Shown one piece after another: positions 1-34,562 of a stretch of 40,073 nucleotides of DNA (positions are counted from its first letter, which is position 1; each line of letters begins with the position of its first letter). The notes beneath the pieces were generated by a model that saw nothing but the letters and a program-made list of their open reading frames with translations, was not told the origin of the DNA and did no database searches. The translations under genes and the position numbers were made by a program. Origin of the DNA: Desulfobacterales bacterium (GTDB lineage Bacteria > Desulfobacterota > Desulfobacteria > Desulfobacterales > UBA11574); assembly GCA_024641825.1 (NCBI GenBank), contig JAHECI010000005.1:1-40073 (forward strand), given 5' to 3'.

Positions 1-1137
1 GGGATCGGCGGATTCAGCCCGCTGACCGGTTTTATGACCCGAGCGGACTGGAAAGGGGTATGTGAAAATTTTCAGCTTGCCGATGGAACCTTCTGGCCAA
101 TTCCGGTCACTTTATCCGCGGGCAAGGACGATGCTGACAGCATCAAGGTCGGCGATGAAGTAGCGCTTTGTGATCCGGATACCGGTGACATAATGGGCAC
201 CATGAAGGTCACGGAAAAATTTGAAATGACCGAGGCCGACAAAAAGTTCGAATGTGAAAAAGTCTATATGGGTGAAGGTACCTCGACTGTCGAGGAATTC
301 TGGAAGATTGCCGGCGAAGATCATCCCGGCGTCCAGATGGTCATGGCCCAAAAAGAATTCAGCCTTGCCGGACCGGTCAAGGTTTTAAGCGAAGGTGAGT
401 ATCCGACCAAATATGCCGGCGTCTATATGCGGCCGGAACAATCCCGAAAAATCTTCGAAGAAAAAGGTTGGAGTGAAATTGCCGCCCTTCAGCTCAGGAA
501 TCCCATGCACCGATCCCATGAATACCTCTGCAAGATCGCAGTGGAAGTTTGTGACGGCGTGTACATTCACTCTCTGGTCGGAAACCTGAAACCCGGTGAC
601 ATTCCCGCCGAAGTTCGCGTAGAATGTATCGACGCCCTTGTGAAGAACTACTTTGTGGATAAAAATGTGGTCCAGGGCGGCTACCCGCTGGACATGCGGT
701 ATGCCGGTCCCAGGGAAGGCCTGCTCCACGCCACCTTCCGCCAAAATTACGGGTGCTCCCGAATGATTATCGGCCGAGACCATGCAGGCGTAGGCGATTT
801 CTACGGCATGTTCGAAGCCCAGACCATCTTTAACAAGATTCCAACCTCTGACGATCCTGGGAAAAATTTGCTTTGCCAGCCTTTAAAGATCGACTGGACA
901 TTCTACTGTTACAAGTGTGACGGCATGGCCTCACTCAGAACCTGTCCCCACGGCAAGGAAGACCGGGTTCTTCTGTCCGGAACCATGCTGCGGAAGATGC
1001 TTTCAGAGGGCGGAGAACTTCCCGATCACTTTGGACGTGATGAAGTGGTTGCAATCCTCAGGAAATACTACGAAGGGCTCACAGAAAAGGTCGAAATCAA
1101 GATGCACGGCGCCGCCACCGGCGATAGTAAAAAATAG
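1..1137 (+). CDS. sat: Sulfate adenylyltransferase (ATP sulfurylase), 5'-truncated by the window edge
   Basis: Frame is open from base 1 ([12 protein letters not shown]...). Motifs [26 protein letters not shown] and [10 protein letters not shown] are present. Adjacent to qmo/apr. Confidence 0.97.
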
Positions 1138-1389: not shown

Positions 1390-2529
1390 TTATTGTCTTT
1401 TGGAGTACTCATTATATGTCATTGCCACCGTCCGGTAAACGAGATGGGCCAGTTTTGAGAACGGCAGGAATGCAAACAGGTTGAATACAAAAATCAAATG
1501 GATGAAATACATAAAATAGGTCAAACCGGCCAAACCGGCCAGCCGGGTTCCCTCTGTAAGTATACCGGTGACACCGAGCCCCAATACGAGCCCCAGCAAG
1601 TACCAATCCTTATAAGTGGAGGTCTGGTCTTTTTTCGCCAGACGGTTTTTAATCATTAAAGCACTTCCGATAATGAGGGCCACGCCGCTGGCATTTGCCA
1701 GCCATTTGACAGGATTCAACTGTGAATAAGGACCATGCTGCTGAAAAACATATAGGACAACAAAGAATATGTTGGTTACGATAAAAAGCCCCACAAACGA
1801 CCAGAATACCATGAGGTGGGCTGTGGCACGGTCTTTGTTTTCCGAACATTCAGAAAACTTGTCATGTTTTAATATGGTCGGCAAAATACCGGGCAGTGCC
1901 TTGACAAATCCGATAACATTGAATTCTTTATTCTCGGTCTTGCCTTCCAGGACGGCATTTTCATGGATATTTGCGATAAATCTTTTCAGGCCTAAAGCGA
2001 AAATCACAACCACCCAGATCGCCAATGGAACAAAGATCATATCCACCAGCCATGTGGAAAAGAACTGAGAATGCGAAATCCCGTGTTCACCCAATTCCGG
2101 TGAAAAATCGAGGAGACCTGTGATAAGGCCCAGTACAATAAAAATTACCACGGGAATGGCCATAAGGATAGGGAGTTTTTTGGGATCGTTGACCGCTTTT
2201 CCGATGGCTTTGGGTACGGCATACTCCGCAATGGCATAGGAACGAACAGCGCCCAGCACTTCACCCGGTTTTGCCCCCCGGGGACACAGGGTGGTGCAGT
2301 CCCCGCAATGATGGCACAGCCAGATGTCAAGGTTATTGACCAGTTTGTCCTTTAACCCCCAGGATGCCGCGATCATCTCTTTCCTCGGAAACGGCTTGGT
2401 GTCCGGAGAAATGGGGCAGGCCACCGAGCAGGTCGCACATTGAAAGCATTTTTTCAGGGTGTCGCCCCCGAGCCCGATGACTTCTTTAATAAAGCCGACA
2501 TCAGGCTCTATCAGGTATTTGTCTGTCAT
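1390..2529 (-). CDS. qmoC: Quinone-interacting membrane-bound oxidoreductase subunit C
   Basis: HdrC-like 2x[4Fe-4S] motifs (CFQCATCSVACP, CHHCGDCTTLCP) plus a multi-TM cytochrome b domain ending PFSKLAH. Start moved to ATG 2529, which has a GGAGG RBS. Confidence 0.95.
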   Translation of the reverse strand: MTDKYLIEPDVGFIKEVIGLGGDTLKKCFQCATCSVACPISPDTKPFPRKEMIAASWGLKDKLVNNLDIWLCHHCGDCTTLCPRGAKPGEVLGAVRSYAIAEYAVPKAIGKAVNDPKKLPILMAIPVVIFIVLGLITGLLDFSPELGEHGISHSQFFSTWLVDMIFVPLAIWVVVIFALGLKRFIANIHENAVLEGKTENKEFNVIGFVKALPGILPTILKHDKFSECSENKDRATAHLMVFWSFVGLFIVTNIFFVVLYVFQQHGPYSQLNPVKWLANASGVALIIGSALMIKNRLAKKDQTSTYKDWYLLGLVLGLGVTGILTEGTRLAGLAGLTYFMYFIHLIFVFNLFAFLPFSKLAHLVYRTVAMTYNEYSKRQ

Positions 2530-2560
2530 ATGGATACCTCCTGCTATTAAAAAAATGAAC

Positions 2561-2633
2561 ATTGACGATTGAAGATTTTTAATCTCATCTGGAGACCGAT
2601 TCAACCTTCAATCGCCAATTGAAAATCATCAAT
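2561..2633. repeat. 7-nt-periodic imperfect palindrome in the qmoB-qmoC spacer
   Basis: ATTGACG-ATTGAAG-ATTTT ... CAACCTT-CAATCGC-CAATTGA-AAATCAT-CAAT. Arms ATTGACGATTGAAG / CTTCAATCGCCAAT pair at 13 of 14 positions. Confidence 0.6.
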
Positions 2634-2635
2634 CC

Positions 2636-4972
2636 CTAAAATCCCTTGAACGGATTCGGACCCAGCTCTTCAACTTCTTCTACAAAGTCATTGATCATTT
2701 TGGGAAGCTTGTCATACTCGTCGATGGCAATCGTAAACTGGGTCACCCGTTCTTCTTCCAGGGCCAGGCTTGACAGCGCGTCACCGATTTTCTGCATTCT
2801 GATGTCCGAAAGTTCGCTCCCTTTAATAAAATGGCACTGGTAGTCGTCGCCGTGTTGGCAACCCAACAGAAAAGCCCCGTCCATACCCTGGGCCAGGGCG
2901 TCTTTGATCCAGATGACATTCATGGAACCCAAACAACGAATGGGAATAAACCGAACGTCGGCGGAGTAGACAAGCCGGTTCAAACCGGCGATGTCCAGCG
3001 CCGGATAGGCGTCGTTTTCACACACAAACCCGACAATCCGGAACGGGGGCTCGTCATAATCGTCTTCTGAAGGCACGCCGATGGCTTTGACCATGGAACC
3101 GACACTGTCGATGTTATAATCGGCAAAACCGATGATACGCTCGGGACAGGCGCCCATACAGGTACCGCACCGTCGGCAGCGGGCCGGATTCGGCTTGGGG
3201 GTTCCCTTTTCATCATCATCCAGGGCCCCGAAGGGACATTCTTCGGTACATCGCTTACACTGGGTGCATCTCTGGAAGAAAAAATCCGGAAATGTCATAT
3301 CCCCGGACCTGGGATGGACGGAAACGCCGCGGTTTACCGATTCAATGCACTGGATTGCTTTGAGGGCGGCACCGGTGGCATCTTCCATGGATTCTTCTAT
3401 GGTCATGCTTCGCCGAACGGCGCCGGCCGCATAAATGCCGGTCCGCTGGGTTTCATAAGGAAAGCAGATATAATTGGAATCGCAGTAGCCGTCGAAAAGA
3501 CCGATATCCCGGAACGCCGGGCCCTGCCGATACGCCAGGTTGACCACCGGATCATCAACGGTAGCCGGAACCATACCGGCCGCCAGCACCACCAAATCGG
3601 CCTTGACTTTGACCTTTTCTCCCAAAAGGGTGTTATCGGCTTCGACAATCATGCCGTCGCCGTTTTTGGAAACATTGATCACTTCCCCTTTGGTCATGAA
3701 GATCCCTTCATCCTGCTGGATACTTTTGTAAAAATTTTCCAAAAGGCCGGGTGTCCGCATGTGCTGGTAAAAGATATAGGCCTTGCCGTCGTCATAATCT
3801 TCGCGGACATATTTGGCCTGCTTTAACGATACAAGGCTTGTGACCGAACCGCAGTAGTCAAAGTCGGCATCATCATCTCCTTTGCCGGGACTCTGAACAA
3901 AAACAACCGACTTGGCTTCTTTACCGCCCGAGGTGACGATCTTGCCTTGGGCCGCCATCTCCTCAAATTTGTGGTTGGTAACGACATCCGGAAGTAAACC
4001 GTATCCGAGATGTTCGAGTTCACCGGCTTCGGGTTCAAAGGGGCGCCAACCGGCAGCCAGCACAACGGCACCGAATTTTTCACCATCGGGATCGAACTTC
4101 AGAATATCGAGCTTGCCCTCGTTGTACTCCAGATAACGCTTATGTTGTGCTTCAACATCCAGTTCTTTACCGTTCTCATCGAACTTCATTTTTTCCGGAA
4201 GCGGGAAAGGAACGTCAAACTTCATTTTTTCACCGGGTTTTTTAAGCGTTACGGTGAAATCCCCGGGCTCACCGGCGATACGGGCAACGATGGTTTCGGT
4301 TTTAACGGTAATACTGTCAAAGGCTTCAAGTTCTTTGATTTTGCTTTCAATAACCGGTGGCACCAGGTTTTCATAAGGATCGCCGGTGGGCAGCTGTTTG
4401 CGAATTTTGGCTGCATAGCCGCCAATTGCCGATTCTTTTTCGACAATGGTGACGTCATAACCGGCCTTGGCTGCATCCAGGGCCGCTGAAATCCCGGTGA
4501 TACCGCCGCCGATGACCAGGATTTTTCTGCTCAGGGCTTCCAGCTTGTACGGCTCCGGCAGCTTGATTTTTTCAACCTTGGCCATTCCCATTTTCAGATA
4601 ATCTTCGGCCAGCATCTGAAGGCGGTCAAAGTGTTCTTCATCGTCTTTTTGCTCTTCAGTCAGGGCGGGAAATTCGGATCTGGGATGGGACCAGACCGTC
4701 TGTTCGCGTAAGTTCACCCGGTCGACGATACAGCCCTCAAAGTTAAACACATCATAATTGACCCGGCGGGAACAGGCCGCAATAACCAAGGTGTTGTACC
4801 CATCGTCGGCGATACCCTTTTTGATGAGTTCAACCCCTTCCTTTCCGCATAAGAAAGGATGCGTTTTAACCGGATAACCTTCTTCTTCCGGGACTTCGCA
4901 CAGCGCTTCCATATCAAGGGCATCCCCGATGCCGCATCCTGTGCAAATATATACACAATACTTTTTATCCAT
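2636..4972 (-). CDS. qmoB: Quinone-interacting membrane-bound oxidoreductase subunit B (HdrA-like FAD/FeS plus MvhD-like domain)
   Basis: VIGGGITG FAD motif; CTQCKRCTEECP and CRRCGTCMGACP ferredoxin motifs; C-terminal MvhD-like region (CENDAYPALD...RCLGS...CHF); position in the operon. Confidence 0.96.
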   Translation of the reverse strand: MDKKYCVYICTGCGIGDALDMEALCEVPEEEGYPVKTHPFLCGKEGVELIKKGIADDGYNTLVIAACSRRVNYDVFNFEGCIVDRVNLREQTVWSHPRSEFPALTEEQKDDEEHFDRLQMLAEDYLKMGMAKVEKIKLPEPYKLEALSRKILVIGGGITGISAALDAAKAGYDVTIVEKESAIGGYAAKIRKQLPTGDPYENLVPPVIESKIKELEAFDSITVKTETIVARIAGEPGDFTVTLKKPGEKMKFDVPFPLPEKMKFDENGKELDVEAQHKRYLEYNEGKLDILKFDPDGEKFGAVVLAAGWRPFEPEAGELEHLGYGLLPDVVTNHKFEEMAAQGKIVTSGGKEAKSVVFVQSPGKGDDDADFDYCGSVTSLVSLKQAKYVREDYDDGKAYIFYQHMRTPGLLENFYKSIQQDEGIFMTKGEVINVSKNGDGMIVEADNTLLGEKVKVKADLVVLAAGMVPATVDDPVVNLAYRQGPAFRDIGLFDGYCDSNYICFPYETQRTGIYAAGAVRRSMTIEESMEDATGAALKAIQCIESVNRGVSVHPRSGDMTFPDFFFQRCTQCKRCTEECPFGALDDDEKGTPKPNPARCRRCGTCMGACPERIIGFADYNIDSVGSMVKAIGVPSEDDYDEPPFRIVGFVCENDAYPALDIAGLNRLVYSADVRFIPIRCLGSMNVIWIKDALAQGMDGAFLLGCQHGDDYQCHFIKGSELSDIRMQKIGDALSSLALEEERVTQFTIAIDEYDKLPKMINDFVEEVEELGPNPFKGF

Positions 4973-4982
4973 GAATAACCTC

Positions 4983-6260
4983 CTACTTCCTCACCAGGGT
5001 TTGAATCGCTTTAAGGGCCATTCCGGTGGCATTCTGGTTTGACGAAACCACATCTGCCGGTTTGTTGGCACATCCTGCAGCAAACATGCCACCTTTTTCA
5101 AAGTCGTTGATGATAAAGCCGTCTTCGTTATATTTCAGATCGGAAGGCAGTTTGTCTATCGCTGCTGTCGGCTGCATACCGGTGGCAAGGACTGCCATTT
5201 CAACGGTTTGCTTGATCTTTTCACCAGTGACTGCATTTTCTGCAACCACGGTGATATTGCCGGTCCCTGGATCTTCACTCACTTCGGCAACCTTGCCTTT
5301 GATTAGAAAGACATTTTCATCGTCTTTGATGGTCCGGTAAAATTTCTCATACCGCTGGCCCGGTGATCGGATATCGATATAAAAGATATAAACCTTGGCG
5401 TCCGGATAGGCTTCCCGAATGTAGGTGGCCTGCTTCAAAGAGGCCATACAGCAGATATATGAACAATATGGAAGATAGTTTTCATCTCTGGAGCCGGCGC
5501 ACTGGACAAATGCAATGCTCTCGGGTTCCTTGTCGTCCGACGGACGGATAATTTTCCCTTTGGTCGGACCGTTGGGAGACGCAAGTCTTTCCATCATCAT
5601 GTTGGTAATAACATTCGGATATTGCCCGAAACCGAGATTGTCAATCTTGGTGGCGTCATAAGGCTCCCACCCTGTAGCCCAGACGATGGCACCCACTTTA
5701 AGGTTGGTGGTTACGGCCGCCATGTCGAGATCGACGGCATCGTATTTACAGGCTTCCTTACATTTTTGGGCATCCTCGGTTCCGATAATTTGAGGAGAAA
5801 TTACATAACGGGTCGGAAACGCCATTTCAAACGGCAGATACGCCCCCTTGATCTTGTTCATTCCAAAATTGAAATCACTGGAAATTTCAGTTTCACAGGC
5901 CGCCTCACAATCGCCGCAGCAGGTACAGTTTTCATTGACATATCTGGGGCTCGACTTGACTGCAACCTCATAACTCCCCGGCGTGCCCTCGACCTTTTCA
6001 ACCTCAGCCTGTGTTAAAACGGTTATTCTCGGATTATCTTTTATCCTCCGGAAATTGATTTCCAGACCACAGCTCGGAGGACATAGCTTGGGAAAATATT
6101 TATTTAGCTGTGCCACTCTTCCGCCTAAGTAAGGATTTTTTTCCACCAAAAACACGTCGTATCCGACTTCGGCAGCTTCGAGGGCCGTGGTCAAGCCGCT
6201 TATCCCTCCTCCAACAACCAAAATGCTCCCGTTTGAAGGGGCTGCTTTGTTTTCTGTCAT
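4983..6260 (-). CDS. qmoA: Quinone-interacting membrane-bound oxidoreductase subunit A (HdrA-like flavoprotein)
   Basis: VVGGGISGLTTALEAAE, YFPKLCPPSCGLE and QCAGSRD...YCSYICC motifs; directly downstream of aprA. Confidence 0.96.
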   Translation of the reverse strand: MTENKAAPSNGSILVVGGGISGLTTALEAAEVGYDVFLVEKNPYLGGRVAQLNKYFPKLCPPSCGLEINFRRIKDNPRITVLTQAEVEKVEGTPGSYEVAVKSSPRYVNENCTCCGDCEAACETEISSDFNFGMNKIKGAYLPFEMAFPTRYVISPQIIGTEDAQKCKEACKYDAVDLDMAAVTTNLKVGAIVWATGWEPYDATKIDNLGFGQYPNVITNMMMERLASPNGPTKGKIIRPSDDKEPESIAFVQCAGSRDENYLPYCSYICCMASLKQATYIREAYPDAKVYIFYIDIRSPGQRYEKFYRTIKDDENVFLIKGKVAEVSEDPGTGNITVVAENAVTGEKIKQTVEMAVLATGMQPTAAIDKLPSDLKYNEDGFIINDFEKGGMFAAGCANKPADVVSSNQNATGMALKAIQTLVRK

Positions 6261-6602: not shown

Positions 6603-8576
6603 TTAATCAGGGATGATCTTGATGTAATCTTTCTTGAAGATATCCCATTCTTTTGCCTTGGGATCAAACTTGGAGTTGACGAAGCAGAACCAGTTCTCGT
6701 CATCCTGTCCCGGATAGTCGGCCTGATAGTAGAATCCCGGATAACGGGTTTCTTTGCGGTACTGGATGTGACGCAGGTGAGACTCGACCGTCCAGATGCG
6801 GTGCTCGATTTCCCAGCAGCGCATCAGCTCATGGAGGTCACCGGCAGCCAGCTTTTCACAGTCTTCGCGCATCATCAAGAGCATATCCATGATGATTTCC
6901 AGACTCTTGGAACTGGTCATGTAGTAGGTGGCCGTACCGGCGCCATACTCATGGGTAGCCTTCATCAAACGATACATCATCCCTTCGGGTTTGAGATAAT
7001 TGGGGTTGATATTGATGGCCGTGGTATAATCTTTATGCTCAAGGAATGTTCTCACCGGCTTGTAAATCAGGTCCACCAGCTCTTCCTTGGACTGGCTAAG
7101 GGTCGGTTTAAAGTCGGCATTGTCACGTACAAACCGGGCCATGGATTTGGCGCAAATACGCCCTTCTGCATGGGAACCGGAGGAGAATTTGTGACCGGAA
7201 GCACCCACACCGTCACCGGAGGTAAACAGGCCGTTGACCGTGGTCATGCGGTTGTACACCTTGCCTTTGTAGCGGATTTTGTAGGCATCGGGGATCCAGT
7301 CATAATCAGGTCCGGAGGTCCACAGCCCGCAGCAGCCGGAATGGGATCCCAGCAGATACGGCTCAGTGGGCATAATCTCTGAGGTCTTCTTGTCCGGCTC
7401 GGTGTTCGTGCCGCACCACAGGTTGGCCTGTCCGCAGGTCATATCCAGGAAGTTTTCCCAGGCTTCTGATTCCAGGGCCTTCATTTCTTTCTTGTCCAGC
7501 TTTCCACCCATTTCTTTAAGGGCTGTGACCGTATCCATCATGACCGGGCCGCGGCCTTCCTTCATCTCAAAGAGCATCAGGTGGTTTCGGAGACAGGTGG
7601 GCGTAATGGCGGCGGTTCCGTAAGGTGCATATCTCTGAAGCTCTTTTTTGGCGGCGTCACTGCCCACGTAGCCTTCACCCAGGCCGTTGACGGTTTTGGC
7701 CTTGAAGAGCAAGAACCAGGCGCCGACCGGGCCGTAACCGTCTTTGTAACGGGACGGGGTGAAACGGTTTTCCATCATGGTAAGCTCGGCACCGACCTTC
7801 ATGCACATGGTGTAGGTGGAACCTGCGTTCCAAACCGGATACCAGGCACGGCCTTTTCCTTCACCGACGCTGCGGGGCTGGTAGATGTTTACAGCACCGC
7901 CGCAGGCAACCATCATGGTGTTGCATTTAATAATGAAGACTTTGTTTTCACGAACGGAAAAACCGACCGCGCCGGCGATTCTGTTTTCTTCATTGGCGTC
8001 CAGAAGAAGCTCGACGATAAAGCAACGTTCCAGAATATTTTCGTCGCCAAGGGCCAGCTTGGCAGCTTCGGCAACGATTCTTTTGTAGGATTCGCCGTTA
8101 ATCATGATCTGCCATTTTCCGGTACGGACAGGTTTGGCGCCACCCTTTAAGGTCCCCATTTTCAGGCCTTTTTTACCGTCCATTTTCTTTCCGTCGTCGG
8201 ACAGTTTCCACATGGGAAGGCCCCATTCCTCGAACAGAAATACGGAATCGTCCACGTGACAGCCCAGATCAAAGATAAGGTCTTCACGGACAATGCCCAT
8301 GAGGTCGTTGCGGACCATACGGACATAGTCATCGGGCGTATTCTCGCCGATGTAGGTGTTGATTGCTGAAAGCCCCTGGGCAACAGCGCCACTACGCTCC
8401 ATAGCAGCTTTGTCACACAGCAGGATTTTTGCGTCAGGTGCCCATTTCTTAACCTCGAAAGCAGTTCCGCAGGCAGCCATGCCGCCGCCTACGATCAGAA
8501 TATCAACTTCGCGCTCTTCAACTTCCGGATCCCTGACAGCTTTGAGTTCTCCCAAAGGTTTATTCGGTAATGCCAT
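6603..8576 (-). CDS. aprA: Adenylylsulfate (APS) reductase alpha subunit
   Basis: RSGAVAQGLSAINTY, WQIMINGESYK, GRAWYPVWNAGS and GHKFSSGSHAEGR signatures. Confidence 0.99.
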   Translation of the reverse strand: MALPNKPLGELKAVRDPEVEEREVDILIVGGGMAACGTAFEVKKWAPDAKILLCDKAAMERSGAVAQGLSAINTYIGENTPDDYVRMVRNDLMGIVREDLIFDLGCHVDDSVFLFEEWGLPMWKLSDDGKKMDGKKGLKMGTLKGGAKPVRTGKWQIMINGESYKRIVAEAAKLALGDENILERCFIVELLLDANEENRIAGAVGFSVRENKVFIIKCNTMMVACGGAVNIYQPRSVGEGKGRAWYPVWNAGSTYTMCMKVGAELTMMENRFTPSRYKDGYGPVGAWFLLFKAKTVNGLGEGYVGSDAAKKELQRYAPYGTAAITPTCLRNHLMLFEMKEGRGPVMMDTVTALKEMGGKLDKKEMKALESEAWENFLDMTCGQANLWCGTNTEPDKKTSEIMPTEPYLLGSHSGCCGLWTSGPDYDWIPDAYKIRYKGKVYNRMTTVNGLFTSGDGVGASGHKFSSGSHAEGRICAKSMARFVRDNADFKPTLSQSKEELVDLIYKPVRTFLEHKDYTTAININPNYLKPEGMMYRLMKATHEYGAGTATYYMTSSKSLEIIMDMLLMMREDCEKLAAGDLHELMRCWEIEHRIWTVESHLRHIQYRKETRYPGFYYQADYPGQDDENWFCFVNSKFDPKAKEWDIFKKDYIKIIPD

Positions 8577-8645: not shown

Positions 8646-9083
8646 TTAAACAGTTGCCTGCGGTTTTGGAATTTCATAACCATCTGCCTCTTGGGTGGAA
8701 AGTAGCTCGCTGTCAAGATTTTTGCCTGCGAGATCAAGATACGCATTGGCAGCGCCTTCAGGCGTTGTCCGGATGGGGAACTTAAAGCGCTTGATGGTTC
8801 CGTTCCTGAACTTACAGGTCCACATGACATCCTCGGTTCCAAGCATCGGCATAATGCTGCTTCCCAGCGGTACAAAGTCGGCATAACCTCTGACTTCGAT
8901 TGCCTGGGTGGGGCAGATCTTGACGCATGAAAAACATTCCCAGCACTGATCAGGCTCCTGATTGTAAGCCTTCATTTCATTGGGTTCCAGAACCATCAGG
9001 TCGTTGGGGCAAATGTACATGCACGCGGTCTTGTCCCCGCCTTTGCAGCCATCGCATTTTTCGGTAATTACGAAACTTGGCAT
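8646..9083 (-). CDS. aprB: Adenylylsulfate reductase beta subunit
   Basis: MPSFV..CDGCKGGDKTACMYICPNDLM, CWECFSCVKICP and RFKFPIRTT; AGGAGGT RBS at 9090-9096. Confidence 0.99.
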   Translation of the reverse strand: MPSFVITEKCDGCKGGDKTACMYICPNDLMVLEPNEMKAYNQEPDQCWECFSCVKICPTQAIEVRGYADFVPLGSSIMPMLGTEDVMWTCKFRNGTIKRFKFPIRTTPEGAANAYLDLAGKNLDSELLSTQEADGYEIPKPQATV

Positions 9084-9272
9084 TTAGTTACCTCCTAATT
9101 TTGTTTTGAAAATAATTCAGCATTTCAATCGGTTCTAAATAGTCTCTGGTACAATTTCTAGGCTATTTGCACCTCCCTTCATAATCTTGGCCCAACGGGC
9201 CGTCTTTTCTTAAGTGTAAAAATCCCTATTCTTATTTTCTAAATCACCTTTCCAAGTGATAAAAAGTTCAGG

Positions 9273-9301
9273 TTGACAAGGTAAATAATTTTCTATAAAA
9301 T
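9273..9301 (+). promoter_or_regulatory. Sigma70-type promoter candidate firing toward ykgJ/SDR (away from aprB)
   Basis: TTGACA (9273-9278), 17 nt, TAAAAT (9296-9301). Confidence 0.55.
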
Positions 9302-9337
9302 CAACAAGATAGCAATGAACCTAAAAGTCAAAAAATT

Positions 9338-9366
9338 TAAATAACAATTAACATTATCCTTGTCAA
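9338..9366 (-). promoter_or_regulatory. Sigma70-type promoter candidate for aprBA
   Basis: Minus strand TTGACA (9366-9361), 17 nt, TATTTA preceded by TGn. The -10 element is weak. Confidence 0.4.
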
Positions 9367-9424
9367 GGACTTTTGGATAAACTAAATTATTAATTTATAA
9401 CCCATAGAATCATCCGTTTGCCAG

Positions 9425-9471
9425 ATCCTATATATAGTCAACAATACTTCGTCATATACCACATGTTGTGG
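9425..9471. promoter_or_regulatory. Tandem NrdR-box-like operator
   Basis: ATCCTATATATAGTCA (9425-9440) and ATACCACATGTTGTGG (9456-9471). Both keep the core positions of acaCwAtATaTwGtgt and start 31 bp apart. Confidence 0.65.
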
Positions 9472-9615
9472 TTAATAGGATTCAGGTTGTGTGTTTCATT
9501 CAGCTAATGAATTTCATACAGAATTTTACAGAATTTTGCTGCTTGTCGAACGGTAAACGTACCAATCATACAGTTTACAAGACACGAACTCGAACAAGGG
9601 AGGCGGTGCCCGCCG

Positions 9616-9699
9616 GTTATTTGTTATTTGTTATTAGAAAATTGAGGTTGGAGGGTGGTGCTGCGCGTAAACCGCTTGGCGCAAAGCGCAGAGAGTAAA
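9616..9699. repeat. Two short heptamer tandem repeats
   Basis: GTTATTT-GTTATTT-GTTATTA (9616-9636) and GCGCAAA-GCGCAGA-GAGTAAA (9679-9699). Confidence 0.45.
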
Positions 9700-9989
9700 G
9701 CAGTTCCCAAAAAAATATTTTCCAATTGAAATGCATGTGGTCACAATTTCGGTAAGCTGTAGGATTGTTCCGTTTTGATCGGGAAGCTGTTTGAGCAAAT
9801 TAGAGCGCGTTAAAGTGAACAGCAAAGAGGTTGGTCAAAATTATGGATAATTATCATTTTCCCGCCGTGCAATCTTAATACGTAAGACCTGTTCGCTTTT
9901 ACGCGGTTTTTTTTGCGAGTTCTTGCCGATCAAAACGGAATTGTCCTGCAGCTGAAACGGGATGTTATTTTAAGAAAGGATGTTGATCC

Positions 9990-10718
9990 ATGGAAAACAA
10001 CATATCCCCCATTTCGTCGAACGACACCTTCACGTTTTCATGCTCCCAAAAAGTCGCCTGTTTCAATGAATGTTGTCGAGATCTGAACCAGTTTCTCACC
10101 CCTTACGACATCCTGCGCCTTAAAAACAGACTCGACTTGACATCGCGTATTTTTCTTGAGCGTTATACCACCCAGCACATTGGTCCTGAAACCGGACTTC
10201 CCGTAATCACGCTTAAAACAGACTACGCTCACAAATTTAAGTGCCCGTTTGTGACCGAGTCAGGATGCAGGGTATACGAAGATCGTCCGTCCTCGTGCCG
10301 GACGTATCCGCTGATCCGGGTTGCATCCCGGTCCAGAGAAACCGGCACGGTCACCGAACAGTACATGCTGTTAAAAGAAGCGCACTGTTTGGGATGTAAA
10401 CAGGGACACCGCTGGACGGTGCAGGATTGGATAGAAAATCAGGAGGTTGCCATTTACAATCAAATGAACGACATGTTCATGGAGATCATCGGCCTCAAAC
10501 ATCACCGCTTGCCCGGTCCGCTGGATGTAAAATCGGGTCTTATGTTTCACCTGGCGTGTTATGATCTTGACACCTTCAGATCCCATATCTTCGATAACGA
10601 TCTTTTAGGTGACTGGAATCTGGACCCAAAGACGATAGATGCCCTAAAACATGACCATGTCGAGCTGTTGAAACTCGGTTTTGAATGGGTCAAAGAGACC
10701 CTGTTTGGAAAACCTTGA
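9990..10718 (+). CDS. YkgJ-family (CxxCxxCC-type) cysteine-cluster protein
   Basis: FSC....ACFNECC, CPF....C.VYEDRPSSCRTYP and a later CLGC; AAAGGA RBS. Confidence 0.85.
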   Translation: MENNISPISSNDTFTFSCSQKVACFNECCRDLNQFLTPYDILRLKNRLDLTSRIFLERYTTQHIGPETGLPVITLKTDYAHKFKCPFVTESGCRVYEDRPSSCRTYPLIRVASRSRETGTVTEQYMLLKEAHCLGCKQGHRWTVQDWIENQEVAIYNQMNDMFMEIIGLKHHRLPGPLDVKSGLMFHLACYDLDTFRSHIFDNDLLGDWNLDPKTIDALKHDHVELLKLGFEWVKETLFGKP

Positions 10719-10737
10719 CAGGATTAGGGATGAAACT

Positions 10738-11553
10738 ATGAAAATCAAAGATAAGGTCGCGCTGGTTCTCGGCGCGATAAAAGGAATCGGCAAAAGCATC
10801 GGACTGGCCCTTGCAGACGAAGGGGCCAAGGTCGCTTTTAACTATTTCGACTGGGAAGAAAGTCTTGTTGAATTAAAACAAGATGTTGTCAAAACCGGCC
10901 AGGATCACCTGCTCATCAAAACAGATTTGCTCGAGGGCGAGAAAATTCCAGAACTTGTCAAAAAAGTCGTGGATCATTTCGGCCGACTCGACATTCTAAT
11001 CAACAACATCGAACGGGGCGGATGGCCGGTGGTTCATGGACCGTATGTTCAGGGACAGTGGGACCTGGAACTGGCCACCACCTTGCGGACAAAAACATGG
11101 ACGTTTGAATCCGCCCTCCCCTATCTTAAAAAATCGGGGGACGGCGTGGTCATAAACCTTTCGTCCATTGCGGCCATCGTGGGCCGGTCGGGTCCTGCCA
11201 GCTACATATTCAACGAAGGCTATGCAGCAGCCAACCGCGGCGTTTCTTTGTTGACCGAGACCTGGGCCCGCATGGGCGCTCCGGAAGTGCGCGTCAATGA
11301 AATCATGCTCGGTTTTGTTGAAACCCGTCATGGGGAAAAAACCAGGGGCTGGGGCTTGCTCACCGATGCACAGAAAGCAGCGATTAGGGACCATACCCTC
11401 CTCTTGCGTTCCGGCACCCTGGCGGATGTGGTGAAAGCCGTTCTTTTTATTATAAAAGACGCGCCCTTTATGACGGGAAGCGTTCTACGGCTTGACGGCG
11501 GTTATGTCCTGGGTGGCGAAAAGGTCGCGCCCATGCCCAAAGGGGTGCTTTGA
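10738..11553 (+). CDS. SDR-family oxidoreductase, atypical (pteridine-reductase/FolM-like features)
   Basis: LGAIKGIG Rossmann motif, GRLDILINN, INLSS, APEVRVN, FMTGSVLRLDGG. Catalytic YxxxK reads YAAAN. Start placed at ATG 10738. Confidence 0.85.
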   Translation: MKIKDKVALVLGAIKGIGKSIGLALADEGAKVAFNYFDWEESLVELKQDVVKTGQDHLLIKTDLLEGEKIPELVKKVVDHFGRLDILINNIERGGWPVVHGPYVQGQWDLELATTLRTKTWTFESALPYLKKSGDGVVINLSSIAAIVGRSGPASYIFNEGYAAANRGVSLLTETWARMGAPEVRVNEIMLGFVETRHGEKTRGWGLLTDAQKAAIRDHTLLLRSGTLADVVKAVLFIIKDAPFMTGSVLRLDGGYVLGGEKVAPMPKGVL

Positions 11554-13618: not shown

Positions 13619-14674
13619 CTAAAACTGCGGCGAGGGGAAAAAGATTTTCTTGTAAAGGTTCAACGCATCTCGATCGGTCATGCTGGCAATGAAATCACAA
13701 ACGATCCTTTCGATGGGAAGTCGGTTGTGATAACAGCCGGCCATCTGCATATTTTCAAGACTTTTCTGAAGCATCTTTTCATTCTCCAAGAAAAAGCCGT
13801 AAAGTTCGGACAAAATCTTTTTGGCTTTTTCAAATTCTTTGTGAACTCGCGGAGAACGATAGACCTTTTCATAAAGAAACTCTCTCAATACGGTCATGCT
13901 GGAATAGACTCGATCGCTCATCTCCAGACACAGCTTACCATCGCGAACACAGGTGGAAAATACCAGATCTTTTATCATGGTGTTGGCGCGTTCCGAATGG
14001 GTGCGTCCGAGAACCTTTATACACGAATCCGGAATCTGGTGGGAAGTGACCACGCCGCTTCTTACGGCATCATCCAAATCATGATTAAGATATGCCATAA
14101 TATCGGCGATCCGAACGATATTTCCTTCGGTGGTGCAGGCCTCCTCGGCGGGATCATCCGGCATAATCTTTCCATACCCCTTGGAATGCTTTAAAATGCC
14201 GTCCCGCACCTCATAGGTCAGATTCAGTCCCCGACCGTTATTCTCCAGAACATCCACCACACGCAAGCTCTGTTCCTTGTGTGAAAAATCGGGGGAAAAT
14301 ATTTCTTTGAGAACCGTTTCGCCGCCGTGGCCAAAGGGCGTATGCCCCAGGTCGTGGCCCAATGCAATGGCTTCGGCCAAATCCTCGTTGAGACGCATGG
14401 CCCGGGCGATGTTTCTCGCAATTTCAGACACTTCAAGGGTATGGGTCAGGCGGGTCCGATACTCGTCGCCCAAGGGAGATAGAAAAACCTGGGTCTTATA
14501 TTTTAACCGTCTGAAAGCATTGGAATATACAATTCGGTCCCTGTCCACCTGAAAAACGGTTCGGATGGGACAGAGGTCTTCTGATCTCCTACGGCCCCGG
14601 GATTCGGCGCTCACACATCCAAAAGGTGAAATAAAGCCTTTTTCACGTTTTTCAAAATCTTCGCGGATACTCAT
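13619..14674 (-). CDS. dgt: Deoxyguanosinetriphosphate triphosphohydrolase (HD-domain dGTPase-like)
   Basis: FQVDRDRI..S.AFRRLKYKTQVF, RTRLTHTLEV, HDLGHTPFGH.GE and DFIASMTD. Start placed at MSIRE (14674); 14692 is an alternative. Confidence 0.92.
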   Translation of the reverse strand: MSIREDFEKREKGFISPFGCVSAESRGRRRSEDLCPIRTVFQVDRDRIVYSNAFRRLKYKTQVFLSPLGDEYRTRLTHTLEVSEIARNIARAMRLNEDLAEAIALGHDLGHTPFGHGGETVLKEIFSPDFSHKEQSLRVVDVLENNGRGLNLTYEVRDGILKHSKGYGKIMPDDPAEEACTTEGNIVRIADIMAYLNHDLDDAVRSGVVTSHQIPDSCIKVLGRTHSERANTMIKDLVFSTCVRDGKLCLEMSDRVYSSMTVLREFLYEKVYRSPRVHKEFEKAKKILSELYGFFLENEKMLQKSLENMQMAGCYHNRLPIERIVCDFIASMTDRDALNLYKKIFFPSPQF

Positions 14675-14817
14675 AATCGGAAAGTTATTCATAGGAAAAT
14701 TAAATTGTAAAGAAATATTTGACCCTTTACATCCTGAAAATCTTATTTTATGCTTTTTTCCGGTTCGATATGAGATTATATTTATAATACACTGGCGCAA
14801 TTTGAAACGCTAAATTT

Positions 14818-21827: not shown

Positions 21828-21902
21828 GCGGGCATAACTCAGTGGTAGAGTACAAGCTTCCCAAGCTTGGAGTCGCGAGTTCAAATCTCGTTGCCCGCTC
21901 CA
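21828..21902 (+). tRNA. tRNA-Gly (anticodon CCC)
   Basis: Acceptor stem GCGGGCA/TGCCCGC, D-arm CTCAGTGGTAGAG, anticodon arm CAAGC-TTCCCAA-GCTTG, GTTCAAATC T-loop, discriminator T and encoded CCA. Confidence 0.97.
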
Positions 21903-34103: not shown

Positions 34104-34562
34104 ATGAACGCGTCTCCTGTCATCAAATTCCTCCGTTTAAGACCTGACTCGGATGCAGATATGCCCCTGCCCTGCTACATGACGCCCAGGGCCGCCGGGA
34201 TGGACATATGTGCTGCAATAGAATCCGATTTCATACTCGAAAAAAGGGCGGTTGCTTTGATACCCACCGGTTTCGCCGTTGCCATTCCAGAAGGGTTTGA
34301 AATCCAGATCCGTCCCCGGAGCGGACTGGCGATAAATCACGGAATATCGATCATTAATTCCCCCGGAACCATAGATGCCGACTATCGCGGAGAGATAAAG
34401 ATTGGGGTGATAAATCTTGGAAACAAAGCCTATGTGATTCACCGGGGGGACCGCATCGCCCAGATGGTGGTTAAAAGGGTTTATCAGGCACACTTAGAGG
34501 TTGTGGAACAACTCGATGAAACCGACAGAAATACCGGCGGGTTCGGGCATACCGGGCGTTAA
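34104..34562 (+). CDS. dut: dUTP diphosphatase
   Basis: AAGMDI, RPRSGLA, GTIDADYRGEI, RIAQ and RNTGGFGHTG. Confidence 0.97.
   Translation: MNASPVIKFLRLRPDSDADMPLPCYMTPRAAGMDICAAIESDFILEKRAVALIPTGFAVAIPEGFEIQIRPRSGLAINHGISIINSPGTIDADYRGEIKIGVINLGNKAYVIHRGDRIAQMVVKRVYQAHLEVVEQLDETDRNTGGFGHTGR

Follow-up and report, generated by a model that had tools for sequence, protein, structure and literature searches.

The spacer between aprB and a divergently oriented ykgJ-like gene in a 40,073-bp stretch of Desulfobacterales DNA (the whole stretch analysed, here termed the window) contains two 16-bp boxes of the NrdR type. As judged from sequence comparison, the aprBA promoter includes this pair as a genuine cis-regulatory module that is conserved among relatives. 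Motif and spacing are those of NrdR operators, both are conserved in related loci, and the pair lies at a fixed, helically phased distance from the promoter. The boxes thus probably form a conserved NrdR-type double operator of a sigma-70-type aprBA(-qmoABC) promoter, which dATP-loaded NrdR would modulate from upstream. What appears to be new here is the regulatory context in which a canonical NrdR-type pair is found, and its position is unusual.

Genes in the window were called from an ORF list and Pfam scans of the ORFs (Table 1). The three genes following aprA are presumably qmoABC, going by the gene order and by known sat-aprBA-qmoABC loci, and aprA was named from its position and size. 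The qmoABC genes (1390 to 6260, minus strand) share the strand of aprBA and probably belong to one transcription unit with it. A second CxxCxxCC gene often lies near the ykgJ-like and SDR genes. The sole Rfam match in the whole window at the gathering threshold was a tRNA at 21828.

Table 1. Features of the window, with coordinates, strand and the basis of each assignment.
Feature	Position	Strand	Sequence, size or basis
sat, 5'-truncated	34-1137	+	Pfam/ORF scan
putative qmoC	1390-2604	-	Pfam FAD/NAD-binding, FlpD and Fer4 domains across qmoABC
putative qmoB	2636-4972	-	Pfam FAD/NAD-binding, FlpD and Fer4 domains across qmoABC
putative qmoA	4983-6260	-	Pfam FAD/NAD-binding, FlpD and Fer4 domains across qmoABC
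putative aprA, APS reductase alpha subunit	6603-8576	-	657-aa ORF directly 3' of aprB, FAD_binding_2
aprB, APS reductase beta subunit	8646-9083	-	Pfam APS-reductase_C 1.4e-31 and Fer4 domains
Spacer, aprB to ykgJ	9084-9989		906 bp
Predicted aprB 5' leader	9084-9331	-	~248 nt; ends in AGGAGG and ATG; leader blocks kept in 7 sequences
Predicted extended -10	9338-9346	-	TGT + TATTTA; 17 bp after -35; conserved as TGaTAtt across loci
Predicted -35 hexamer	9361-9366	-	TTGACA; invariant in seven-sequence alignment; strongest block in promoter-anchored profile
A-rich block	9367-9376	-	CCAAAAGTCC; directly upstream of -35; invariant in seven-sequence alignment
Box 1, promoter-proximal NrdR-type box	9425-9440		ATCCTATATATAGTCA; centre ~-102 from predicted aprB start site
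Linker between boxes	9441-9455		15 bp
Box 2, promoter-distal NrdR-type box	9456-9471		ATACCACATGTTGTGG; centre ~-133 from predicted aprB start site
ykgJ-like (CxxCxxCC), divergent from aprB	9990-10718	+	Pfam
SDR gene, divergent from aprB	10681-11553	+	Pfam
HD/dGTPase-like gene	13619-14800	-	Pfam
dut	34104-34562	+	Pfam

The box sequences, their coordinates, the 31-bp distance between their starts and the 15-bp gap given in the first-pass annotation of this DNA were exact on re-reading. Its description of both boxes as 16-bp palindromes was overstated: 5 of 8 position pairs are symmetric in each box (for box 2, in the NrdR register), and box 1 is perfect only in its 10-bp core, CTATATATAG. The boxes were compared with the NrdR consensus acaCwAtATaTwGtg, as quoted in PMC4009431, to which a symmetric t was added at position 16. 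Box 1 matches this consensus at 12 of 16 positions and box 2 at 11, and all six capital positions (C4, A6, A8, T9, T11 and G13) are kept in both, in agreement with the core match first claimed. No other single box in the 40,073 bp scored as high as boxes 1 and 2 in a consensus-weighted scan; as a pair they scored 35, compared with 28 for the next independent pair.

The upstream regions of nrdAB, nrdDG and nrdHIEF of E. coli K-12 were used for calibration. Their pairs scored 35, 38 and 36, respectively, in the consensus scheme, all with a start-to-start distance of 31 bp, and the nrdAB pair found by the scan is 'box 1+2', the true binding site according to PMC12176259. With a symmetrised log-odds matrix made from the six boxes of these three operators only, the window pair scored 28.8 bits (16.4 bits for box 1 and 12.5 bits for box 2), compared with 30.3-33.9 for the training pairs and 8.4 for the next independent pair in the window. 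Both window boxes carry the G·C pairs at positions 4 and 13 that are critical for binding according to PMC9110341, and their separation of 15 bp falls in the range of 14-17 bp, usually 15-16 bp, given in PMC12051234. Thus, the window sites look like NrdR-type boxes at canonical spacing that score like validated E. coli operators, as had been proposed. The departure from such operators is in the location, a ribonucleotide reductase (RNR) operon promoter being replaced by that of aprBA; neither the window nor the 80 related loci described below contain an nrd gene.

The window pair also fits the regular expression for NrdR pairs, 'short' spacer class, published in PMC12051234. This expression alone is loose, with 2 other places in the window and an average of 1.36 places in shuffled windows. 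That ~1.4 places are expected per shuffled 40 kb, and that the region is AT-rich, would suit an origin of the boxes as chance AT-rich palindromes without function in an AT-rich spacer. However, none of 300 mononucleotide shuffles, in which the composition was kept in 500-bp blocks, scored as high as the window pair (28.8 bits; the shuffles averaged 11.4 and peaked at 22.2), and the pair recurs at a specific position in dozens of loci that cannot otherwise be aligned. A chance origin, which this conservation already contradicts, is therefore given a negligible probability.

Between the boxes and aprB, the minus strand contains the elements of a sigma-70 promoter, namely TTGACA, a 17-bp spacer and TGn + TAttnn, kept across species, and this arrangement predicts a start site. 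A generic promoter scan omitted this -10 because the hexamer ends in A. The position of the -10 places the likely aprB start near 9331. In 14 loci that mostly cannot be aligned, the A-rich block abutting the -35 is kept as CgAAA.TTC; going by the UP-element consensus, it may resemble a proximal subsite. No sign of structured RNA was found in the predicted aprB leader (fold z-score -0.06), and no RNA family matched the intergenic region (9000 to 10050) in Rfam at E<=1. Within the leader, the block at 9133-9183 (minus strand), GAAGGGAGGTGCAAA.AGC.TA.AAATTGT.CC.GA, is nearly invariant in seven sequences; it had no Rfam match, and its fold energy was not unusual. A promoter-like site on the plus strand at 9273-9301 (11/12) was rejected, as its -35 is not kept in relatives and its -10 lies inside a conserved block of the aprB leader.

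For comparison, the AprB protein of the window was scanned against one genome per species, giving 80 loci, mostly from Desulfobacterales MAGs, with AprB identities of 85-97% to the window. The loci are ~4-12 kb each (mean ~10 kb) and comprise 819,274 bp in total. The set of 80 sequences used below consists of the window and the 79 loci having at least 470 bp upstream; L067, with 178 bp only, was dropped. By blastn, one locus only (L001, 93%) aligned over the whole spacer, and five further loci aligned at ~70% over 9084-9526, the remainder being unalignable. In the resulting alignment of seven sequences, the distal box of close relatives is GCACAATATATAGTGT, which matches the consensus at 15 of 16 positions; it is exact in L002 and L014, one end position off in L004 and L013, and one core position off in L011. 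The proximal box is weaker than the distal one, and the spacing is free of gaps.

Across the 80 loci, pairs scoring at least 32 lie nearly all 300-470 bp upstream of the aprB ATG, and 43 of the 80 sequences have such a pair at -520 to -250 from the ATG. The upstream pair outscores all other pairs of its locus in 53 of the 80 sequences in the consensus scheme. When the E. coli matrix was used instead, the best pair of the locus was in this 271-bp span in 53 of 79 loci, compared with ~2 expected by chance. The published expression has 43 places inside the span (21.9 kb), in 40 of 81 sequences, and 26 elsewhere (~837 kb), the latter being mostly recurrent conserved coding positions.

Counting pairs that score at least 30, plus those of L036 and L079, the module is present in 55 of the 80 sequences; hence the conservation of boxes and spacing in relatives, on which the earlier reading depended, holds for about two thirds of the loci. 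The start-to-start distance in the 55 sites is 31 bp in 40, 32 bp in 8 and 30 bp in 7. In the distal box, A8, T9, T11 and G13 are kept in 55/55, C4 and A6 in 54/55 each, T14 in 49/55 and A3 in 42/55. The proximal box has C4 in 47/55 and G13 in 51/55, the homologous position being kept as ..C.A.AT.T.G; in both box matrices the sites were picked with the consensus, and conservation at the weighted positions is thus partly circular. The E. coli matrix and a promoter-anchored profile serve as independent checks on this circularity. The profile was made from 14 mostly unalignable sequences, with the clade of the window reduced to one, and showed, in order,.cAC.A.ATaT.GTa, ca.C.A.AT.T.G, CgAAA.TTCTTGACAAgg and TGaTAtt as conserved blocks. 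In the same profile the linker sequence is not conserved (mean 0.31 bit), and the 60 bp beyond the distal box, on the ykgJ side, have essentially no conservation (0.17 bit).

The remaining 25 of the 80 sequences have no pair scoring at least 30; they include the complete genome of Desulfosarcina variabilis (L016), which has a different promoter. L016 belongs to a Desulfosarcina-type group (with L012, L020, L021 and L077) that has no box pair and shares a different promoter at ~-132 from aprB, with the context TAGACAAAAC ATTGACA ... CATGAT and a short leader. An inserted 194-aa ORF with no Pfam match separates aprB from the pair and an ATTGACA promoter in L036 and L079, where both lie ~1.1 kb upstream of aprB (the region ~-1150 to -300). 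L037 has a duplicated 129-bp segment with the box pair (1326-1454 and 5511-5639, 95% identity); the copies flank ~4.2 kb with three ORFs, two of them of the OmpA family, between alr and aprB, an arrangement suggesting that an insertion duplicated its target region.

In the window, 58 bp separate box 1 from the -35. A TTGACA sequence follows the proximal box after 55-60 bp in 49 of the 55 sites (58 bp in 21), and the six exceptions, at 36, 46, 47, 47, 70 and 70 bp, are displaced from the mode by about one or two helical turns. Helical phasing of the boxes with the promoter is suggested by these distances, and no more than suggested, because the six exceptions probably arose in just three or four independent events.

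The aprB gene starts at 9083 (minus strand), 342 bp from the boxes, and ykgJ at 9990, 519 bp from them; the ~340 and ~520 bp given at first were thus close. The boxes might accordingly control the divergent ykgJ-SDR genes, alone or in addition, the association with aprB being a by-product of the shared intergenic region. The ykgJ-SDR genes are indeed the divergent neighbours of aprB in 51 of the 74 sequences with enough upstream sequence, 42 of these 51 have the pair, and in many loci the distal box is only ~100-250 bp from the ykgJ start. Nine sequences with an adjacent ykgJ lack the pair, though, and ten keep it with no adjacent ykgJ detected. In six of these ten, the upstream gene is unrelated and codirectional: alr, for alanine racemase, in L007, L032, L040 and L056, a DegT aminotransferase gene in L046, and OmpA-family genes in L037. 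In L007, the alr stop is only 16 bp from the start of the distal box. Between the distal box and the ykgJ start there are anywhere from 42 to 541 bp, with two negative values (to -126) that come from over-long ORF calls, in contrast to the fixed distance to the aprB -35.

Because of this fixed distance, the retention of the pair where ykgJ is missing and the lack of conservation on the ykgJ side, the boxes are assigned to the aprB promoter, and control of ykgJ-SDR, alone or in addition, is considered improbable. Footprinting, which the first-pass annotation had proposed for deciding between the two genes, hence favours aprB. Its suggestion that the ykgJ and pteridine-reductase-like (SDR) genes belong to dNTP metabolism gains no support. 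The HD/dGTPase-like gene and dut both encode dNTP-pool enzymes, and no NrdR-like pair was found near either, all other pairs in the window scoring 28 or less.

The part of the spacer beyond the boxes has further repeats. An inverted repeat, TTCATT-N5-AATGAA, is present at 9495-9511, 24 bp beyond the distal box; a version of it, ATTCA-N5-TGAAT, is kept in the seven alignable sequences and not conserved in the wider set, and it may be a second, clade-specific site. A tandem TACAGAATTT (two copies, 9517-9536) and a terminator-like hairpin with a T-rich tail on the plus strand (9602-9614) belong to ~300 bp of additional sequence that separates the boxes from ykgJ in the window and in L001 alone. 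No sign of structured RNA was found on the plus strand of 9472-9632 (fold z-score -0.46).

We know of no other motif that combines the 16-bp consensus and the tandem spacing of the NrdR pair. NrdR is named here, with fair confidence, as the most likely protein to bind the aprB pair; curated databases reportedly list NrdR for several Desulfobacterales. Counting against an NrdR operator are the absence of an RNR operon next to the pair, the lack of overlap with the promoter, the third of the loci in which no pair is present, and a review stating that another sulfate reducer, Desulfovibrio, is without nrdR (PMC4009431). As the first-pass annotation had stated, there is no nrd gene in the window: neither nrd genes nor nrdR were found in the 40 kb by Pfam or by local tblastn with E. 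coli NrdR, NrdA, NrdD and NrdG, and the same queries gave no match in the 819,274 bp from the 80 relatives.

A less likely alternative, yet one to be taken seriously, is that another Desulfobacterales regulator binds the double site, either a diverged NrdR paralogue or an unrelated tetrameric upstream activator; aprBA would be regulated in this case as well. Helical phasing and a position at -102/-133 fit an upstream activator better than a repressing NrdR, and the tblastn searches of the window and the 80 loci gave no nrdR match. Paired boxes are moreover confined to RNR operons genome-wide in E. coli and P. aeruginosa, non-RNR genes having single boxes, according to a preprint (10.1101/2025.03.28.645925). 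Against a different regulator are the 30-32-bp spacing, the high score obtained with the E. coli operators and a match that extends beyond the core, A3 (42/55) and T14 (49/55) fitting the 'aca...tgt' arms.

With NrdR as the preferred binder, the aprB pair can be compared with known sites. It shares with the operators of RNR operons (nrdAB, nrdDG and nrdHIEF of E. coli; nrdRJ and nrdAB of S. coelicolor) the 16-bp AT-centred palindromes with C4 and G13, the 15-16-bp spacer and the distance of about three helical turns between centres, with scores equal to those of E. coli. Unlike those operators, it precedes aprBA-qmoABC, and its boxes are ~58 bp upstream of the -35 rather than over the promoter or start site. 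The single boxes at topA of Pseudomonas and dnaA of Shewanella are likewise NrdR-type sites outside RNR genes; the aprB site differs in being a full pair with canonical spacing, conserved across many species.

NrdR boxes upstream of both promoter hexamers, plus a distal pair, have a precedent in PMC12051234, and a third box >200 bp upstream of the start site of P. aeruginosa nrdAB is reported in preprint 10.1101/2025.03.28.645925. The distal pair of L. monocytogenes nrdAB and box 3 of P. aeruginosa nrdAB are like the aprB pair in lying well upstream of the promoter elements. However, both are found in addition to a promoter-proximal pair of an RNR operon, and no more than a weak function is known for them, whereas aprB has no pair besides the distal one, which keeps a locked phase with the promoter. 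Upstream sites with helical phasing are otherwise known for bending or class I factors, such as Fis at rrnB P1 and CRP at -61.5, -72.5 and -92.5. The aprB pair has in common with these a fixed helix face at an UP-element-type promoter and distance variants in ~11-bp steps, but its motif is unrelated.

According to PMC9110341 and PMC12176259, loading with dATP plus ATP or ADP is required for the NrdR tetramer to bind two boxes spaced by three turns, and the tetramer kinks the DNA by ~90 degrees at each box. In the same sources, ATP alone gives non-binding oligomers and AMP with dATP gives very weak binding, and in E. coli the replacement of ATP or ADP by AMP abolishes binding (PMC12176259). The first-pass suggestion that AMP-producing APS reduction is tied to adenine-nucleotide pools through NrdR finds no direct support. 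At aprB, an NrdR tetramer loaded with dATP and ATP or dATP and ADP would bind both boxes, as it does at RNR operators, and would kink the DNA at each. The first-pass annotation had called the factor a repressor, which can be no more than a candidate role here: boxes whose centres lie ~102 and ~133 bp ahead of the predicted start are too distant simply to occlude RNA polymerase. Because occlusion is impossible from -102/-133, the bound NrdR is expected to act by reshaping the upstream DNA, altering its path on one helix face. The promoter, with its UP-like block, TTGACA and extended -10, is predicted to be very strong and would be modulated rather than blocked.

The sign of this control is a best guess, close to a coin toss, as activation by bending fits the geometry equally well. 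We lean to negative control because every validated paired operator represses, and the sole claim of activation concerns the single topA box, from a reporter study (PMC4409342) whose effect RNA-seq did not reproduce according to preprint 10.1101/2025.03.28.645925. With a negative sign, aprBA would be damped when dATP accumulates, i.e. when replication and growth stop.

NrdR has been described as a repressor specific to RNR genes, and a 2016 regulon survey places it solely under deoxyribonucleotide biosynthesis (PMC5343134). In full-text literature searches, which did not extend to the 2005 founding paper on NrdR boxes, no paper was found that links NrdR with sulfate reduction, and none on an aprBA promoter or start site; the one co-mention of NrdR and APS reductase was in an unrelated expression table. 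The 2016 survey reportedly did not cover Desulfobacterales, and to our knowledge the transcriptional control of sulfate respiration in this order has been little studied.

More broadly, it is quite possible, and is put forward tentatively, that in many Desulfobacterales NrdR is not specific to RNR genes and also occupies a full, tetramer-type double operator at the APS reductase/Qmo promoter, where it bends DNA remotely, locked in helical phase, possibly as an activator, and couples the dATP/ATP/ADP state to sulfate respiration. If so, aprBA would be without precedent both as an operon outside RNR genes that has a canonical NrdR pair and as the location of an NrdR site working by architecture rather than occlusion. 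The phase-locked remote position would offer a natural system for studying whether the DNA U-turn that NrdR induces is able to regulate remotely. With a canonical pair at aprBA, conserved in dozens of sulfate-reducer species, energy metabolism would become part of the NrdR regulon, and nucleotide or growth status would be linked, in a testable way, to the rate-setting machinery of sulfate respiration.
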